From a bacterium (GTDB lineage Bacteria; Electryoneota; RPQS01), in assembly GCA_016702305.1 (NCBI GenBank), contig JADJEH010000001.1, forward strand, positions 312,077 to 376,076: DNA of 64,000 nt, written 5' to 3'. Positions 10,864 through 61,821 of this stretch are shown piece after piece. The position numbers and the translations under genes were made by a program. Below the pieces are notes generated by a model. The model saw only the letters and a list, made by a program, of their open reading frames with translations, made no database searches and was not told where the DNA came from. The first letter of the stretch is position 1. Every line of letters starts with the position of its first letter.

Positions 10864-10947
10864 GCGAGAGTGGCGGAATTGGCAGACGCGCCAGATTTAG
10901 GTTCTGGTATCCGAGAGGGTGTGGGGGTTCGAGTCCCCCCTTTCGCA
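10864..10947 (+). tRNA. tRNA-Leu (anticodon UAG), class II with long variable arm
   Basis: GCGAGAGTGGCGGAATTGGCAGACGCGCCAGATTTAGGTTCTGG...GGGGGTTCGAGTCCCCCCTTTCGCA is near-identical in architecture to E. coli tRNA-Leu. The acceptor stem is GCGAGAG/CTTTCGC. The anticodon loop TTTAGGT gives anticodon TAG. Confidence 0.85.
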
Positions 10948-14181: not shown

Positions 14182-14220
14182 CGGCGTGACGACCCACCAA
14201 AGTTGTCACGCCGTTTTTTT
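14182..14220 (+). terminator. rho-independent terminator downstream of clpX
   Basis: A 9-bp stem CGGCGTGAC/GTCACGCCG is followed by TTTTTTT at 14214-14220. The T-tract abuts the ATG at 14221 of the next gene. Confidence 0.4.
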
Positions 14221-16017
14221 ATGCGTACCCCCATCACTATCTCACTCATCCTGCTCACGCTGTGCCTTGTGCACGCGTGGGCCGACGCGCCCGCTCCGCC
14301 GCCCCGTGAGCAGCTCCGCGATTCCGTGGCCGTGCGCTGGGAGGAGGGAGCCGAGCTCACGCGTTGGCTGGCTTCCGCGAGATGGGACCACATCGCCGCC
14401 GCACGAATGAGGACCGCATTGAAAGCGGATTGGACCACTGCGCTCTCGCGCGGCCTAAGCACTGATGGCCGCTTGCGCCATGATGTGCGTTGGTCTGGTG
14501 CGCTCGCGCGTGCCCTGAATTCCTCATGGTCACTCTGGGGCGGCGCAACTGGTCAGCACTATGTGGACCGCCCGCGTGCTACCACCAGTGTCGCCCAGGG
14601 AAATCGCTCACATCTTCTGCGCCTCGGAGCCGGACCTGCCGTGCGCTGGTCCGACGAACTGCGCTCGACGCACAGCCTCGGCATGGTCGCAGATTCGCGC
14701 GTGGAACGCACCGAGTCCGGTCTGGCAACCTGGCACACCGGCGAGTATGCGCTGAACTCCGCGCCGGAAGTCAGGCACCGGTTTGAAGCGCTGCTCGACT
14801 ACGAATCGCCCGGCGCGCGCAGCGGTAGCGCCGCTGAATTGCAGTATGCTCTGAATCAGGAGTACGAAGCCGCGCGCAATAGCGCCGACGTTTCCTTCAA
14901 TTGGACCCGCCGTGACGTCTTGACCGCCATTAACGCGCCGTCGCAATTGCGTGAAGAGACCGCGCTCCGCATCGCCGATGCCATCGAATATGAACTGGGA
15001 ACGGGAGCCGCACTTCGCGGTCACGGCGATGTTCGCTATTTCGACACCAAGCTCGATGATCGGCGCGGAAACAACTCCCGGCTTGAAGAACTCGAATCCG
15101 GTATCGAATCAGAGTTTGAGCTGCGCCGCCGCCGCAGCAGCGCGACGCTGTCACTCGCCGTGCGCGGTGTGTCACAGAATGTACGCGGCGAGATTCTCAC
15201 GGGACGCAAGACCGTGCTGGCCGCCGACGGACGTACAAAGGTACACACTTTCGATGTGCGCCTGCATTCGGCCTTCAGCAAGTACACGCTGGACACCCGC
15301 TCAGACGAGAATTTTGACGACCGCGACGAACTCGCGTGGCGCTTCGACGGCGGCCTCAGCGCCCCGGTCAATCGCGCCTTGAAGATTCAAATTCAGGCGT
15401 TGGCCGACTTAAACCATTTGGTTTACATCTTCAGCAGCAACAGTGCGAATAACCGCTGGACGCGCCTGTTCCTGCTTACCACGCGATTCGTTCATACGCC
15501 GGACCGCAACATCCTGCATGCTCCCGAGTTCCGCATCAGCGCCAACTATCAAGCGTACGACTTTGAGTTGAATCCGCGCCAAGTTCGATCTACGGTCTTT
15601 CGCCGCATTACGCTGGGCGACAGTGTGGCCGTGCGCGCCGAACGCTGGGTCTTCGCATTGCGAGCCGAAGTCGCTCGGGAAGAACTGGGTCGTCTCTACT
15701 GGGACGACTTCGCTGAAGAACGTAGTGACCGCACGGACGTCTTGAATGCCGCCTTCATCTCCACGCGCGAGTTCTCGCCCGGCGCCAACATCTCCGCCGG
15801 AGCCGTCTATGGCGTGCGGCGCGGTGACCGCTTCGAATTTGGTGGCGCGCCATTGCGCGTGCAGGACATCGTCTCGTGGGGCCCGCTTGCGCGCGTCAAT
15901 TGGAATAGCGCAGAGTGGTTTTTCACCGGTGGTATGCAATGGGTCTTGCAGTCTGAACTCGGTCGCGCGGACCGCGATTTTCTCTCAGGTACGATTACAG
16001 CGGGGCGCACATGGTGA
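14221..16017 (+). CDS. hypothetical secreted protein, probable outer-membrane beta-barrel
   Basis: A signal peptide MRTPITISLILLTLCLVHAWA is present. The body shows amphipathic alternating-residue strands (LSLAVRGV, VHTFDVRLH, ALKIQIQAL, VYIFSSNS). The C-terminus ...TITAGRTW ends in an aromatic residue, typical of BAM substrates. I do not recognise the family. The ORF-track start at 14203 (TTG) sits inside the terminator and is less likely. Confidence 0.5.
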   Translation: MRTPITISLILLTLCLVHAWADAPAPPPREQLRDSVAVRWEEGAELTRWLASARWDHIAAARMRTALKADWTTALSRGLSTDGRLRHDVRWSGALARALNSSWSLWGGATGQHYVDRPRATTSVAQGNRSHLLRLGAGPAVRWSDELRSTHSLGMVADSRVERTESGLATWHTGEYALNSAPEVRHRFEALLDYESPGARSGSAAELQYALNQEYEAARNSADVSFNWTRRDVLTAINAPSQLREETALRIADAIEYELGTGAALRGHGDVRYFDTKLDDRRGNNSRLEELESGIESEFELRRRRSSATLSLAVRGVSQNVRGEILTGRKTVLAADGRTKVHTFDVRLHSAFSKYTLDTRSDENFDDRDELAWRFDGGLSAPVNRALKIQIQALADLNHLVYIFSSNSANNRWTRLFLLTTRFVHTPDRNILHAPEFRISANYQAYDFELNPRQVRSTVFRRITLGDSVAVRAERWVFALRAEVAREELGRLYWDDFAEERSDRTDVLNAAFISTREFSPGANISAGAVYGVRRGDRFEFGGAPLRVQDIVSWGPLARVNWNSAEWFFTGGMQWVLQSELGRADRDFLSGTITAGRTW

Positions 16018-18135: not shown

Positions 18136-18208
18136 TGAGAGCGCCGGGATTCGAACCCGGGACCATCGCCTTAAAAGGGCGGTGCTCTACCTGCTGAGCT
18201 ACGCTCTC
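18136..18208 (-). tRNA. tRNA-Lys (anticodon UUU)
   Basis: The reverse complement reads GAGAGCGTAGCTCAGCAGGTAGAGCACCGCCCTTTTAAGGCGATGGTCCCGGGTTCGAATCCCGGCGCTCTCA. Acceptor, D, anticodon (loop CTTTTAA) and T arms fold canonically and are close to E. coli tRNA-Lys. Confidence 0.85.
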
Positions 18209-30158: not shown

Positions 30159-32099
30159 ATGACGCGTGGACGCTTAGCTCTGCTGGCTGTATTGGCCGCA
30201 CTTTACCTGTTGATGGGCTGCTCCGCCAGCCGACAACTCTCCAGCCAATCCGGTCGCACTGAATTCCAAGAGCGAATCAGCCAGCCTGACCAGCTTACGG
30301 ACCGCGAACAGTGGAGCCTCGCCCGCAAAGCCTACGCGTACGCCCAGCGCGCCGAGCAACGCGGTCAGACCGAAGACGCCGCCTTCTACTACGAAACATC
30401 GCTTGAATTGCTCGGTGATTTGGATCTGGCTTCAATTGACGTCGAAATGCACCGCGTCGCCAGTTTCAACCGCCGCGTCCTCGATAGCTACGACCTGTTC
30501 GTTTCCAACACGAAATCTCTGCCCGCATCGTCGGGGCTGACCGCCGTCATTGAAGCCGGCGAGGTCCAGCACGACGGAGAAGACGAAGAGGACGACGCGC
30601 CCGACGAGATTGAAGTCGTCGCACCCGCGCCGGTCGAGCAGCCGTTTGCCGAGACCGAAGTCGTGTCCGTCAAACCGATGCTGCCGCCCGTTCCGATGGA
30701 AATCAACAGCAAGGTCCGCAACCAGATACACTTCTTCCAGACCAAGGGCAATAAGGTCATGAACCGCTGGATGGAGCGCGCCGCTGTGGTCTTCCCGCGG
30801 ATGCGCCCAATCCTGCGCGAAGAAGGTATCCCGCAGGAGATGCTCTATCTTTCGATGATCGAGTCCGGCCTCAATATGCAGGCCTACTCATATGCACACG
30901 CCTCCGGCCTCTGGCAGTTCATTCCCGGCACCGCGCGCAACTACGGCTTGCATGTGGATCGTGCCTATGACGAACGCCGTCATGTTGAAATGGCCACCCG
31001 CGCCGCCTGTGCCTACTTGCGCACGCTTTACGAAATGTTCGGCGACTGGTATTTGGCCATGGCCGCCTACAATTGCGGCGAAGGCCGAATTGCCAAAGAG
31101 ATCAAGCGCTGCAAGACCACCGACTATTGGGAAATGCACCGCCTGCCGCGCCAGACCAAGGGCTATGTCCCAACCTATCTGGCTGCCCGAACCATCTGCG
31201 AAAATCCGACTCGCTACGGCTTCCCGCCCTTGCCGCCGGAACGTCCTTTCGAATGCGAGCGCATCTTTGTGCCGGGCGGATACAAGATTGACGATATTGC
31301 CCGGGCGGCCGGACATGATCCGCAGGCCGTGCGGGAGCTGAATCCTGAGTTCTTGAAAGGCGTCATCCCCGACCGCGGTCAAGAGATGCTGGTCCGCCTG
31401 CCGGGATCCGCGTCCGAGTCGTTCTCAGAAGAACTCGCCAACCTGCCGAAGACGGTGATCGCGCCGACCAGCGTGCACCGCGTCCGCAAGGGCGATACCC
31501 TGAACAAGATCGCCAGCAAGTACGGCACGAGCGTCAATGCGATTCTCGGCATGCCTGAAAACAAGCGCGTCAAGGCGCGTTCGTTGCGCGTCGGTCAGGA
31601 AATAGTTATTCCGGTCACCGAAGTCCGCTACGCTGAACAGGCGCCGGCGAAGACCGTCAAAGAAACCGCCGCTGAACGGAGTGCTGAGTCCGCCGCCGTC
31701 TCCGAGACGGTCACCGACCGCATCACCTACACGGTCCACCGCGGCGAATCGCTCGGCAGCATTTCCGGCCGCTTGGGTGTGTCGGTAGATCAGATCTGCC
31801 GTGAAAACGGCATCAGCAATCCCAACAAGATCCAGCCTGGCCAAAAGCTCACCGTCACCGTCAAGGGTGAGCAGCAGGTCATGCAAGTGGCTCAGGCCGC
31901 CAAGAGCAAGTCGAAATCAAAAATCGCCTCCACCGGCACTTCCGATGCCGCCAAGAAGTACTACACCGTGCAGCGCGGCGACACCGCCTGGAGCATCGCC
32001 CAGCGCCACGGCCTCGATCTTGACACCATGCTCAAGCTCAATCGTCTGTCGCGCCGCGCCAATATCTACCCCGGTCAGCGCTTAGTCGTTAGTAAGTAG
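30159..32099 (+). CDS. mltD: membrane-bound lytic murein transglycosylase, MltD-like (SLT domain + 3 LysM), lipoprotein
   Basis: The lipobox signal is MTRGRLALLAVLAALYLLMG|C. The SLT catalytic block is ...LYLSMIESGLNMQAYSYAHASGLWQFIPGTAR.... Three C-terminal LysM repeats are present (YxV.(R/K)GD(T/S)L..IA..). Confidence 0.8.
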   Translation: MTRGRLALLAVLAALYLLMGCSASRQLSSQSGRTEFQERISQPDQLTDREQWSLARKAYAYAQRAEQRGQTEDAAFYYETSLELLGDLDLASIDVEMHRVASFNRRVLDSYDLFVSNTKSLPASSGLTAVIEAGEVQHDGEDEEDDAPDEIEVVAPAPVEQPFAETEVVSVKPMLPPVPMEINSKVRNQIHFFQTKGNKVMNRWMERAAVVFPRMRPILREEGIPQEMLYLSMIESGLNMQAYSYAHASGLWQFIPGTARNYGLHVDRAYDERRHVEMATRAACAYLRTLYEMFGDWYLAMAAYNCGEGRIAKEIKRCKTTDYWEMHRLPRQTKGYVPTYLAARTICENPTRYGFPPLPPERPFECERIFVPGGYKIDDIARAAGHDPQAVRELNPEFLKGVIPDRGQEMLVRLPGSASESFSEELANLPKTVIAPTSVHRVRKGDTLNKIASKYGTSVNAILGMPENKRVKARSLRVGQEIVIPVTEVRYAEQAPAKTVKETAAERSAESAAVSETVTDRITYTVHRGESLGSISGRLGVSVDQICRENGISNPNKIQPGQKLTVTVKGEQQVMQVAQAAKSKSKSKIASTGTSDAAKKYYTVQRGDTAWSIAQRHGLDLDTMLKLNRLSRRANIYPGQRLVVSK

Positions 32100-32189
32100 T
32101 TTCGAGCAACACCGTCGCGCTCGCGGCGGCAGGTGTTTGCGTCTGACCCTATAGTTCCCGTATTGTTCACTTCATGATGGAGACTTGCT

Positions 32190-32480
32190 GTGGGTCGCAC
32201 GGTGACCAAACAGGAGCTTGTTGACAAACTCGCCGAAGGCATCGGCCTCACCCGCATCGAAACACAAGCCGTCGTTGACGGCTTTTTGGCCCTTGTTATG
32301 GAGGCCGTCTCCACCGGCGATCGCGTCGAATTGCGCCGCTTTGGAGTATGGAAACCTGTGCATCGCAAAGGCCGTCAAGTGCGCACGCCTGATGGTTTGC
32401 ACGAAGTCCAAATCCCCGACCGCACCGCCGCCGTGTTCGTTCCCGCCGACGAGTTCCGCGACCGCATGCTCAAAGACTGA
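32190..32480 (+). CDS. HU/IHF-family nucleoid DNA-binding protein
   Basis: GTG start. ...TKQELVDKLAEGIGLTRIETQAVVDGFLALVMEAV..GDRVELRRFGVW... ends in an RTPDG-type beta-arm, as in the HU/IHF fold. Confidence 0.85.
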   Translation: MGRTVTKQELVDKLAEGIGLTRIETQAVVDGFLALVMEAVSTGDRVELRRFGVWKPVHRKGRQVRTPDGLHEVQIPDRTAAVFVPADEFRDRMLKD

Positions 32481-32578
32481 GCCGCGTTCGTACTGTCCAC
32501 GCCGCGTTTTTTTCCTGTTACTGTTAATACATCATTCACCCCGCCAAGGCCTGCGCCGAGGCAGAAACGGAGACACCC

Positions 32579-32674
32579 TTGCCCTGTGGTAAGAAGCGCA
32601 AGCGCCATAAAATGGCCACGCACAAGCGCAAAAAAAGACTGCGCAAGAATCGCCATAAAAAGAAACTGCGCTAA
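32579..32674 (+). CDS. rpsV: 30S ribosomal protein bS22 (RpsV-like) micro-ORF, 31 aa, TTG start
   Basis: The translation (M)PCGKKRKRHKMATHKRKKRLRKNRHKKKLR* was read by hand. It is not in the ORF track because it is under 60 aa. It closely resembles the Lys/Arg/His-rich bS22 peptides of Bacteroidota and Actinobacteria (...GKKRKRHK.ATHKRKKR.R.NRHKKK). An ATG at 32612 would give a 20-aa version. Confidence 0.6.
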   Translation: MPCGKKRKRHKMATHKRKKRLRKNRHKKKLR

Positions 32675-32748
32675 GGGTCACGCGCGTTCGCGCGTGACTC
32701 CCACCGCCGGATCATCACGGGTGCGGGCCTTCTTCGTGAGGCCCCGCC

Positions 32749-34020
32749 GTGTTTGTAGGATTACCCCTCACCGTGAATTCCGACCCCGCAGCCAAGCCTA
32801 ATGCCGATGCCCAAAGCCTGACGGTCTCCGCACTCACGCGTGAGATCAAACGGCTCTTGCGCGAACGCTTCGAGCCGCTGTGGGTCGAAGGCGAACTGTC
32901 CGGGTACAAGCCGCACTCCAGCGGCCACCACTACTTTACGCTGAAAGACGCGACCGCACAACTGTCCTGCGCCATGTGGCGCATGTACGGAAAAGGGCTG
33001 CGCTTTACGCCGCGAGACGGTCTGCTCGTGCAGGCCTTCGGACAACTCGAGGTCTACGAACCGCAAGGCAAGTATCAGCTCATCGTCTATGAGCTCAGAC
33101 TGTCCGGCGAGGGGGAACTCCAGCGCGCCTTTGAAGAGCTGAAACGACGGCTCGAACAGGAAGGTCTGTTCGACAGCGCCCGTAAACGCCCGCTGCCGGC
33201 CTATCCCCACCGGATTGGCCTGGTGACCTCGCCCACCGGCGCGGCCCTGCGCGACATGCAGACCGTGGCGGCGCGGCGATGGCCGCTCACCGAACTCGTG
33301 CTGAAACCTGCGCGCGTACAGGGCAAAGGCGCTGCCGAAGAAATTGCTCAGGCCATCCGCGAGTTCTCCAATTCCGGCGACGTGGACATAGTTGTCGTCG
33401 GTCGCGGCGGCGGATCGCTCGAAGACCTCTGGTGCTTCAACGAAGAAGTCGTCGCGCGCGCCATCTTCGAAAGCAAAGTTCCCGTCGTCTCCGCAGTTGG
33501 ACACGAAATAGACTTCACGATCGCTGACTTTGTCGCCGATCTGCGCGCGCCAACGCCGTCCGCTGCCATGGAGATTATTCTCCCCGACGGAGCGGACATT
33601 CGGCGGCAACTGGTGCAGCTCGAACGCCGCCTGTCACGCATGACCGTGGATCGCGTGTCGCTGCTGAAACATCAACTGCACGCCCTGACCGCGCATTGGG
33701 CCTTGCGGCAACCGCTGCAATGGGCGCAGGCCGCCGCACAGCGCGTGGATGATTTGCATGATCGCTTGCACGAAGCGGCCCTCGCCGCACAATCCGCTGC
33801 CGCCGACGAGCACGCGCGGTTGCACGATCTCCTGACCGCCGTTTCACCACGGCGCGTCCTGCAGCGCGGCTTCGCTATCGTCCGCGACAGCGACGGAGTT
33901 GCGCTGCGCTCCGCCGCGCACACCCGGCCCGGTGAACTGCTCACGATTGAACTCGCCGCAGGCGAACTCAAGGCCCGCGTCCAGAACTCCGCCATCCCCG
34001 ATCTCTTCGATGACCGCTAA
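32749..34020 (+). CDS. xseA: exodeoxyribonuclease VII large subunit
   Basis: An N-terminal OB-fold is present (LTVSALTREIKRLLRERFEPLWVEGELSGYK...SGHHYFTLKD). The catalytic core is ...RGGGSLEDLW.FNEE.VARA.... The start is GTG at 32749. Confidence 0.9.
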   Translation: MFVGLPLTVNSDPAAKPNADAQSLTVSALTREIKRLLRERFEPLWVEGELSGYKPHSSGHHYFTLKDATAQLSCAMWRMYGKGLRFTPRDGLLVQAFGQLEVYEPQGKYQLIVYELRLSGEGELQRAFEELKRRLEQEGLFDSARKRPLPAYPHRIGLVTSPTGAALRDMQTVAARRWPLTELVLKPARVQGKGAAEEIAQAIREFSNSGDVDIVVVGRGGGSLEDLWCFNEEVVARAIFESKVPVVSAVGHEIDFTIADFVADLRAPTPSAAMEIILPDGADIRRQLVQLERRLSRMTVDRVSLLKHQLHALTAHWALRQPLQWAQAAAQRVDDLHDRLHEAALAAQSAAADEHARLHDLLTAVSPRRVLQRGFAIVRDSDGVALRSAAHTRPGELLTIELAAGELKARVQNSAIPDLFDDR

Positions 34021-59127: not shown

Positions 59128-61821
59128 GTGCCCCGCATAGAACTCGATAAAGCCTACACACCGTCGTCCGTTGAAACGCGCCTCTATGACCAATGGGAAC
59201 AGCAAGGCTGTTTTCGCGCGCAGATACGTAAAGGCCACAAGCCCTACGTCATCATGATGCCGCCGCCCAATGTCACCGGCATGCTCACGCTCGGACACGT
59301 TCTTAATAATTCCCTCCAGGATATGCTCTGCCGTTGGCGCCGTATGCACGGCGACGACGTGCTCTGGCTGCCCGGCACCGACCATGCCGGCATCGCCACA
59401 CAAATCAAAGTCGAAGACCAGCTCGCCAAAGAAGGACTGTCGCGTCACGATCTTGGCCGCGAAAAACTCGTCGAGCGCATCTGGGAATGGCGTGAGAATT
59501 ACGGCGGTATCATCTTGCAGCAGTTGCGCCGCATTGGCGCAAGCTGCGACTGGTCGCGCACACGCTTCACGCTCGATCCCGAAATGTCGCGTGCCGTTGC
59601 TGAGATCTTTGTGCGCCTGTACAAGAAAGGCCTGATTTATCGCGGCAAGCGCATCGTCAATTGGGACCCCGAAAAGCGCACCGCGCTCTCTGATGAACAG
59701 GTCGAGTATCGCACCGTCGCCTCAAATCTCTGGCACTTTCGTTACCCGTTGACCGACGGCAGCGGCCATCTCGTCGTCGCGACCACGCGCCCCGAAACAA
59801 TGCTCGGTGACACCGCTGTCGCCGTGCATCCCGAAGATGAGCGCTATCGCCATTTGCATGGCAAAACCGTCACTCTCCCGCTCACCGGACGCGTCATTCC
59901 AATCGTCCCCGATGATTATGTGGATCGCGAATTCGGCACCGGCTGCGTTAAAGTCACGCCCGCACACGATCCCAACGACTTCGAAATCGGCAATCGCCAC
60001 AACCTCGAATTCCTGATCGTTATCGGCCCCGATGGCAGGATGACGGATCTTGTTCCGCCGCAATTCCGCGGCCTCGACCGCAAGGAAGCACGCAAACAGG
60101 TTGTCGCTGCGCTTGAAGCCGACGGTTTCCTCGAGAAAGTCGAACCCTACCAAACATCCGTCGGTCACAACGAACGGACCGGCACTGTCATCGAACCGCT
60201 GCTTTCCGAACAGTGGTTTGTCCGCATGCAGGAGCTTGCGCAACCCGCCATCGCTGCCGTGCGCGAAGGCCGCGTCCGCTTCCATCCCGATCACTGGGAA
60301 AAGACCTACTTCCATTGGTTGGAAAACGTGCGCGACTGGTGCATCTCGCGGCAAATCTGGTGGGGACATCGCATCCCGCTATGGACAGTCAAAGAAACCG
60401 GCGAAATTATCTGCACGCTCGATGATCCCAGCGGTGATCCCAAGTACGCCGGGCTCACACTCGTCCAGGACCCCGACGTGCTTGATACCTGGTTCTCATC
60501 GTGGCTCTGGCCGTTCTCGACGCTCGGCTGGCCGCGCGACACCGAGGATCTTGCACACTTCTTTCCAAGTTCAACTCTGGTCACCGCGCCTGATATCATC
60601 TTCCTGTGGGTCGCGCGCATGATCATCTCGTCCGAAGAGGTTTTCGGCGTCGCACCCTACCAGGACGTTTACTTCACGGGCCTCGTTCGCGACATGCAGG
60701 GCCGCAAAATGTCCAAGTCGCTGGGCAATTCGCCCGATCCGCTCGAGGTGATTGACAGCTACGGCGCCGACGCGCTGCGCTTCACCATCATCTCGCAAAC
60801 CCCGCGCGGAGGCGATATTCGTTTCGGCGTCGAACTCTGCGAGTTTGGCCGCAACTTCGCCAATAAACTTTGGAATGCGACGCGTTTCCTATTGATGAAC
60901 GTGCCCGAAGAGGGTGATACGTTCGCCTTTACGCCCGTCGAAATTCTGCCCAGCGCGCCCGCCAATCTGATTGACCAGTGGATCACCTCAGCCTTCATGT
61001 CCTGCGTCCGCGACGTCGAAAAAGCACTCACCGAGTTCCGCTTCGCTGATGCCGCCAAACGCCTGCATGCGTTTATCTGGAACGACTTCTGTGACTGGTA
61101 TCTAGAGTTGATCAAAGTGCGCTTGCAAGGGTCCGCCGATGAACGCGCCGACGCTCTGCGCCACGCCCTCGGTATCCTCCACGGCATCGTTCGCGCATTG
61201 CATCCCTTCATGCCGTTCGTCACCGAAGAAATCTACCACACGCTGAGCAGTCTGTCGGCCTCAAGTTGGCCCGCTGGTCATCGCCATGCCAGCATTATGG
61301 TCGCGCAATTCCCGCGCTATCAGGCCACGCTCGTCGTTCCCGAAGTTGAAGAACAATTCGGTAAGTTGCAGGACGTCGTCACCGCTCTCCGCAATATTCG
61401 CGGCGAATTGCGCATCGTGCCGTCATTGCGCATCCCTGCGGGCATTCGCGCGGACCACAAGAAAATCGCAGATGAGTGGGAAGCCTTCGCGGACTTCGTA
61501 GTCAGACTGGCCGGCCTCGCCGAACTGCATCTCGACGGCGCTCGGCCGAAAGGCAGCGCCTCCGCGATCGTGCAAGGCATCGAGGTCTATGTCCCGCTTC
61601 ACGGCGTGATTGACGTCTCAGCCGAACGTGCTCGGCTGCAAAAAGAAGACGAACGCCTGTTGAAATTGGTCGAAGGCACGAAGTCTAAGCTCACCAACGC
61701 CAATTTCATCGAACGCGCAAAACCCGAAGTCGTGGACGCCGAACGCGAAAAGCTCACAGAGCTCGAACATGCACATATGAAAATCCGTCGCTTCCTGGAA
61801 GAACTCGAAGCCGCGCAATAA
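59128..61821 (+). CDS. valS: valyl-tRNA synthetase
   Basis: GTG start. PPPNVTGMLTLGHV is the HIGH-region variant. KMSKS appears as KMSKSLGN. A C-terminal coiled coil is present. The product is 897 aa. Confidence 0.95.
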   Translation: MPRIELDKAYTPSSVETRLYDQWEQQGCFRAQIRKGHKPYVIMMPPPNVTGMLTLGHVLNNSLQDMLCRWRRMHGDDVLWLPGTDHAGIATQIKVEDQLAKEGLSRHDLGREKLVERIWEWRENYGGIILQQLRRIGASCDWSRTRFTLDPEMSRAVAEIFVRLYKKGLIYRGKRIVNWDPEKRTALSDEQVEYRTVASNLWHFRYPLTDGSGHLVVATTRPETMLGDTAVAVHPEDERYRHLHGKTVTLPLTGRVIPIVPDDYVDREFGTGCVKVTPAHDPNDFEIGNRHNLEFLIVIGPDGRMTDLVPPQFRGLDRKEARKQVVAALEADGFLEKVEPYQTSVGHNERTGTVIEPLLSEQWFVRMQELAQPAIAAVREGRVRFHPDHWEKTYFHWLENVRDWCISRQIWWGHRIPLWTVKETGEIICTLDDPSGDPKYAGLTLVQDPDVLDTWFSSWLWPFSTLGWPRDTEDLAHFFPSSTLVTAPDIIFLWVARMIISSEEVFGVAPYQDVYFTGLVRDMQGRKMSKSLGNSPDPLEVIDSYGADALRFTIISQTPRGGDIRFGVELCEFGRNFANKLWNATRFLLMNVPEEGDTFAFTPVEILPSAPANLIDQWITSAFMSCVRDVEKALTEFRFADAAKRLHAFIWNDFCDWYLELIKVRLQGSADERADALRHALGILHGIVRALHPFMPFVTEEIYHTLSSLSASSWPAGHRHASIMVAQFPRYQATLVVPEVEEQFGKLQDVVTALRNIRGELRIVPSLRIPAGIRADHKKIADEWEAFADFVVRLAGLAELHLDGARPKGSASAIVQGIEVYVPLHGVIDVSAERARLQKEDERLLKLVEGTKSKLTNANFIERAKPEVVDAEREKLTELEHAHMKIRRFLEELEAAQ

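Follow-up and report, generated by a model that had tools for sequence, protein, structure and literature searches.

The gap between an HU gene and xseA in this stretch of bacterial DNA raises a simple question: is the very short and strongly basic reading frame that lies there a gene and, if so, what does it encode? The original prediction took it to be an unannotated 31-codon gene for ribosomal protein bS22, started at TTG, and its exact coordinates, translation and neighbours hold up against the ORF listing and the Pfam models PF00216 and PF02601 (Table 1). In the window, by which is meant the whole 64-kb stretch of DNA that was analysed, the frame (32579..32674 on the plus strand) opens with TTG, runs over 31 sense codons and ends at TAA, as found both by reading the window and in the ORF listing. 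Its product is MPCGKKRKRHKMATHKRKKRLRKNRHKKKLR which, with the initiator set apart, is shown as (M)PCGKKRKRHKMATHKRKKRLRKNRHKKKLR. The TTG at 32579 is the first possible start past the upstream in-frame stop, the next being an internal ATG at codon 12. Of the 31 residues, 18 are lysine or arginine (58% K/R) and three are histidine, giving a peptide of 3.96 kDa with a pI of 12.0. Beyond the frame, xseA is followed by xseB and then by the gene for NAD kinase.

Table 1. Features of the bS22 locus, in window coordinates
Feature	Coordinates	Strand	Basis and remarks
HU-family DNA-binding protein gene, upstream neighbour	32190..32480	+	PF00216, E = 2e-20
Shine-Dalgarno-like GGAG	32569..32572	+	6 nt before TTG; inside conserved block AAACGGAG (32565-32572)
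bS22 coding sequence, proposed rpsV-like micro-gene	32579..32674	+	ORF reading, PDB matches, shuffles, synonymous-only divergence
Hairpin 1, 11-bp GC-rich stem with GUUC loop	32675..32700	+	1 nt past the stop codon; folding, z = -3.0 to -3.2
Hairpin 2 (32716-32751) with U-rich tail GUUUGUAG	32716..32759	+	Folding, z about -3; overlaps the first candidate xseA GTG
xseA (exonuclease VII large subunit), downstream neighbour, outside the bS22 unit	32749..34020	+	PF02601, E = 5e-92

The product can be compared directly with chains modelled in ribosome structures. When searched by phmmer against all PDB chains, the peptide matched three distinct sequences, all of them bS22 chains and all colinear from Met1, which are those of the P. 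gingivalis 70S ribosome (9I5V/9I5X chain 10; 27/29 identical, E = 8e-10), F. johnsoniae (7JIL chain 5, Fjoh_1533; 25/29 identical, E = 3.7e-9) and Borrelia burgdorferi (8FMW chain V; 21/28 identical, E = 6.9e-7). To control for matches arising from basic composition alone, Smith-Waterman scores were set against those of 5000 composition-preserving shuffles, none of which reached the observed score for the 9I5V, 7JIL or 8FMW chain (z = 16.6, 16.4 and 13.3, respectively). A profile built from 12 peptide variants matches only the same three chains, at E = 7e-15 to 7e-13. The back-translated core motif is present a single time in the 64-kb window and in none of 100 shuffles, and the same core-motif search found no second bS22 copy within the window; an exact look-up of the 31-aa peptide in the protein-cluster collection returned nothing. 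Since the match is directly to proteins validated by structure, the ORF is, as far as sequence can tell, a genuine bS22 gene of the Bacteroidota/spirochaete sequence type and a newly recognised member of a known family, in line with the identity originally proposed.

Divergence at the DNA level bears on whether the frame is translated. The loci compared contain 12 different DNA sequences for one and the same 31-aa peptide; when differences are counted within codons 2-30 with the window ORF as reference, they show no nonsynonymous and up to 25 synonymous differences; only 21% of the possible single-base changes in the ORF are synonymous. The genomes behind these versions differ in the genes that flank the ORF, and the GC content of their sampled loci spans 29% to 59%. 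Across the 12 aligned peptide variants, 17 of the 31 positions are invariant, and the sister species L137 (GCA_016703065.1) starts at TTG too and encodes the peptide in full, its four differences all being synonymous. The bS22 reading frame is thus under purifying selection. That it should instead be a chance basic ORF or low-complexity artefact, or a conserved RNA or DNA site mistaken for a protein, is suggested by its very short length, its biased composition and the lack of any match in Pfam, NCBIfam or Rfam; such a reading can nevertheless be dismissed with near certainty, because the DNA has drifted freely across this range of GC content while the peptide stayed fixed, which is the opposite of the pattern of an RNA or DNA element. 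The position-by-position identity to structurally modelled bS22, well above what composition gives, speaks against it as well, and the differing flanking genes exclude assembly duplicates as the source of the homologous loci. Three ORFs that overlap the bS22 frame, at 32586-32801 (+), 32375-32656 (-) and 32532-32681 (-), were considered and rejected as real genes, since substitutions occur only at sites that are synonymous in the bS22 frame.

Comparison of the window with L137 also shows how the locus is partitioned: DNA identity amounts to 95.8% in the bS22 ORF, 77% in HU, 75% in xseA, 45% in the spacer upstream of the Shine-Dalgarno (SD) sequence and 100% in the AAACGGAG block. No other part of the locus is as well conserved in this comparison as the micro-ORF and its SD. 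GGAG or AGGAGG occupies the same position ahead of ATG in the non-Bacteroidia relatives, and folding gives no significant structure for the leader of bS22 (z = +1.3).

The start codon itself is less usual. At the Met-Pro position, the 118 species loci with a readable start codon among the matches listed have 117 ATG, one GTG and no TTG, so that the TTG of the window is atypical for the family, judged on the matches listed, and this raises the possibility of a decaying or silenced pseudogene, in which an ancestral ATG has become TTG and the peptide is either no longer made or supplied by another copy. Gene callers, moreover, skip the ORF in all nine assemblies of the lineage. Bacteria do, however, use TTG as a start codon, and all eight independent assemblies that carry the HU protein of the window have it here. 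Borrelia bS22, itself unannotated in its genome, starts with GUG (10.1101/2023.04.16.537070). Decay is further at odds with the retention of the TTG, the SD block and the full peptide in L137, where the neighbouring HU and xseA genes have fallen to 75-77% DNA identity and the bS22 ORF remains the best conserved segment. All five within-clade substitutions are synonymous, an outcome with a probability of about 0.207^5 = 4e-4 under random draw, and the 64-kb window holds no other copy that could stand in. It is therefore very unlikely that the gene is a pseudogene.

Equally improbable is the reading of a real gene whose translation begins only at the internal ATG (32612-32614, codon 12), producing the 20-residue peptide MATHKRKKRLRKNRHKKKLR. 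This codon is a canonical start and the only ATG in the ORF, but residues 1-11 (MPCGKKRKRHK) are conserved like the remainder in 12 of 12 aligned variants, the chain is modelled from Met1/Pro2 in the solved structures, and substitutions in codons 2-11 are purely synonymous; on these three counts the shorter form is rejected. In addition, the conserved GGAG is spaced for the TTG and not for the ATG, and homologues place their ATG exactly at the TTG position. Initiation at TTG 32579 is thus retained in what follows.

With the reading frame and its start in place, the next question is why the gene has gone without annotation. The claim that it is unannotated proved correct throughout the lineage: the interval between HU and xseA lacks a gene call in all nine assemblies (L009-L016 and L137, including GCA_963853605.1, GCA_016712825.1 and GCA_016703065.1). 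The explanation first offered, that the ORF falls below the thresholds of ORF callers, did not survive, since 222 blocks of the public assembly collection contain a called gene for exactly this 31-aa product, opened by ATG. Length alone is therefore not the reason, and the gene has probably been missed through the combination of a TTG start with short length.

Profile searches add to the gap. PF08136, which had been suggested as the bS22 profile, turned out to be the SRA_like family of E. coli, matching E. coli Sra at E = 2.6e-31 and the window peptide not at all. The genuine bS22 models are PF08213 (COX24_C) and NF047430 (ribo_bS22), and neither matches the window peptide even at E <= 10. Absence of a bS22 profile hit had been named, alongside lack of conservation, as grounds for refutation, and as a test it would have misled. 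As controls, M. smegmatis bS22 scores 46.2 bits with PF08213 and 62.6 bits with NF047430, whereas that of P. gingivalis reaches only 11.8 bits against a cut-off of 23, and that of Borrelia has no match to either model. Given that these two validated proteins fail too, the missing match reflects a gap in the models and is no refutation, and it appears that no curated HMM covers the FCB/spirochaete type of bS22.

The main value of the finding lies in annotation, as a universally retained ribosomal protein gene is absent from every assembly of the window lineage. Because the curated Pfam and NCBI HMMs miss the Bacteroidota/spirochaete type, automated pipelines will keep overlooking bS22 of the FCB group or labelling it 'hypothetical', and the remedy for thousands of genomes would be a purpose-built profile that accepts GTG and TTG as starts. 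It should be noted that in this lineage the gap is real but ordinary, that ribosome specialists would find the result unsurprising, and that it opens no long-standing question.

Homologues were sought in species-representative genomes with a back-translated degenerate DNA pattern of the core motif, which occurs in at least 120 species-level genomes; among the matches listed, almost all belong to Bacteroidota, Ignavibacteria, Chlorobiota, Kryptoniota and Calditrichaceae. Sequence evidence for bS22 is thereby extended from Bacteroidia to Calditrichota/KSB1-like bacteria, Ignavibacteria, Chlorobiota and Kryptoniota, and the peptide hardly varies from one of these phyla to the next. Gene order has been kept to a large extent, being (HU)-TPR-bS22-RNase G on the same strand in Bacteroidia and HU-TPR-bS22, again on one strand, in Ignavibacteria, Chlorobiota and Kryptoniota. 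The expectation that the micro-ORF would be conserved beside HU or xseA in relatives is borne out not only in L137, at the 95.8% given above, but also in L091 and L049, where bS22 directly follows HU as in the window, and in the Calditrichaceae locus L111, where the order is TPR-bS22-xseA and xseA is 48% identical to that of the window. An upstream HU gene on the same strand, usually together with a TPR gene, is thus the common neighbourhood, and the HU gene of the window agrees with it; this is supportive but not strictly defining.

Most FCB relatives (L001-L008, L017, L044, L055, L108) have a TPR gene of about 200-320 aa between HU and bS22. The window lineage has none, and as only a 98-nt spacer (32481-32578) separates HU from bS22 there, the TPR gene has been lost or relocated. 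Downstream neighbours vary too. L037 (labelled Melioribacteraceae) and L083, two related loci of the low-GC Ignavibacteria type, have neither RNase G nor xseA just downstream of bS22, and tRNA-start-like DNA lies about 20 nt downstream of the gene; in the Thermochlorobacter locus L074, such DNA is found just 3' of bS22 instead of RNase G or xseA. Bacteroidota-type bS22 is also carried by four species-representative genomes labelled Alphaproteobacteria, Methanobacteriota archaeon, Hyphomicrobiales and Janthinobacterium lividum (L034, L075, L091 and L115, respectively). In L075 and L115 the gene stands in its usual setting beside RNase G, L115 also having a TPR gene upstream, and HU lies directly upstream in L091; the four contigs are probably mis-binned or mislabelled.

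The affiliation of the host with the FCB superphylum, for which the presence of bS22 had been cited in support, stands, albeit on other grounds. The valyl-tRNA synthetase (ValRS) encoded at 59128-61821 is 84% identical to proteins of 'Calditrichota bacterium' and 67-69% to proteins of 'candidate division KSB1', and about 50-53% identical to those of Marinimicrobia, Latescibacteria, Bacteroidota and Eisenbacteria. Judged by this protein, the organism is placed near Calditrichota/KSB1 in the FCB group, independently of bS22. Possession of bS22 as such is no guide, given that the protein is also found in Borrelia and Actinobacteria; it is the particular sequence type together with the linkage to HU that points to FCB.

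The surroundings of the ORF give some indication of how it may be transcribed. A promoter scan found no sigma-70-like promoter in 32000-33000, including the HU-bS22 spacer, and relatives have HU, the TPR gene and bS22 closely spaced on a single strand; for both reasons, bS22 is likely co-transcribed with HU. Hairpin 1 has counterparts at the same place in close relatives (L137:3560-3586 and L015:1107-1135), which have only 31% sequence identity but equally strong stems (z = -3.6 and -3.9). The hairpin after the bS22 stop is therefore represented by three unrelated sequences in three close relatives, which suggests rapid sequence turnover under structural constraint, and it is probably a 3' stabiliser or terminator element. 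Hairpin 2 is 78% conserved in L137, where it has a UUUU tail, and with its tail it is terminator-like. A simple terminator scan left hairpin 2 unflagged, as it has fewer than five T in eight bases, and flagged only two chance sites on the minus strand.

The start of xseA differs between assemblies, being GTG 32749 (423 aa) in one and GTG 32773 (415 aa) in another. As the 3' arm of hairpin 2 includes GTG 32749, the 415-aa version may be the correct one. As for other elements, an Rfam scan of the 64-kb window gave nothing near the bS22 ORF and no rRNA, its only matches being two tRNA genes at 10864-10947 (+) and 18136-18208 (-). Elsewhere in the window, a 604-aa ORF at 14203-16017 (+) has no Pfam family at E <= 1e-5.

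Considered as a whole, these observations are best explained by a functional bS22 gene that is started at TTG via GGAG, transcribed with HU and ribosomal in its role, with a probability of roughly 0.93. Translation would start at TTG 32579, directed by the GGAG six nucleotides upstream, on an mRNA that probably also covers the upstream HU gene and would end at the two GC-rich hairpins past the stop codon. If the ribosomes of F. johnsoniae, P. gingivalis and Borrelia serve as a guide, this peptide of 4 kDa and pI 12 would fold into a short bent helix, bound near the decoding centre in the pocket that 16S rRNA forms between h44 and h45, from which its lysine-rich C-terminus could reach H68/H70 of 23S rRNA, adding an intersubunit contact and stabilising h44. 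The homologous proteins have been described in just these terms, as a short helix between h44 and h45 with a basic C-terminus that contacts H70 (PMC7797042, PMC12123416) or, in Borrelia, H68 of 23S rRNA (10.1101/2023.04.16.537070). In F. johnsoniae, bS22 is present in 70S complexes and lost from isolated 30S subunits (PMC13000457), and deletion of the bS22 gene in M. smegmatis increases kanamycin sensitivity (10.1101/2023.03.31.535098). By extension from these systems, the peptide may be expected to be expressed and incorporated into the ribosomes of the window lineage; translation from the proposed start has indirect support in the SD and TTG shared with L137 and in the unstructured leader. 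The window offers no sign that the protein does anything else.

One known protein compared with the window bS22 is E. coli 'S22', that is, SRA/RpsV (PF08136, NF007473). This is an unrelated 45-aa stationary-phase hibernation factor whose profile does not match the peptide, and the two have no more in common than the name 'S22', given historically, and a link to the 30S subunit.

The bS22 of mycobacteria and other Actinobacteria (5O5J, 5O61, 5XYU, 8CRX) is similar in size and charge but shows no significant sequence similarity. The striking similarity claimed in the original prediction for peptides of both Bacteroidota and Actinobacteria thus applies to the former, at the 27/29 and 25/29 identities given above, and not to the latter: BLASTP of the window peptide with M. 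smegmatis bS22 gives E = 90, and 175 of 5000 shuffles score as well as the true pair (z = 2.1). Neither a search with the 12-variant profile nor the reverse search links mycobacterial bS22 or mS38 to the window type by phmmer. Mycobacterial bS22 and mitochondrial mS38/AURKAIP1 occupy the same h44/h45 pocket and have the same bent-helix shape (PMC7797042, PMC12123416), and it is on this shared binding pocket, as described in the structure papers, that a presumed equivalence of the window type with actinobacterial bS22 rests, with homology and convergence both possible. In a bolder form of the latter, the FCB/spirochaete-type peptide would be an independent family that has converged on the pocket of mycobacterial bS22, mS38 and eL41, and a conserved weak TTG start and 3' hairpins, acquired in the Calditrichota/KSB1-like clade, would set or autoregulate its dosage. 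The lack of a detectable sequence link between the bS22 types and the conservation of TTG and hairpins within the clade form its basis, and it would explain why curated profiles do not cover the type; on balance, the proposal is rather unlikely, though far from negligible.

Within this type, the bS22 of Borrelia burgdorferi (8FMW chain V) shares with the window the MPCG N-terminus, the absence from annotation and a non-ATG start, in its case GUG (10.1101/2023.04.16.537070). It differs in coming from Spirochaetota, in being 28 aa long and in reading LKKIS at positions 9-13, where the window peptide reads RHKMA.

The closest counterparts are the bS22 proteins of P. gingivalis (GenBank AAQ66340.1) and F. 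johnsoniae, which are, like that of the window, extremely basic, of similar length (29-31 aa) and built on the motif MPxGKKRKRHKxATHKRKKRxRxNRHKKK, and whose genes in Bacteroidota are preceded on the same strand by HU and usually a TPR gene, HU being likewise present in the window. Bacteroidia ribosomes are SD-blind (PMC7797042). The window gene, in contrast to those of Bacteroidota, has TTG in place of ATG, an SD-led start, no TPR gene before it and xseA instead of RNase G after it, and its product carries a Cys at position 3 and a C-terminal -LR extension, both of which are typical of Ignavibacteria, Chlorobiota and Calditrichota.
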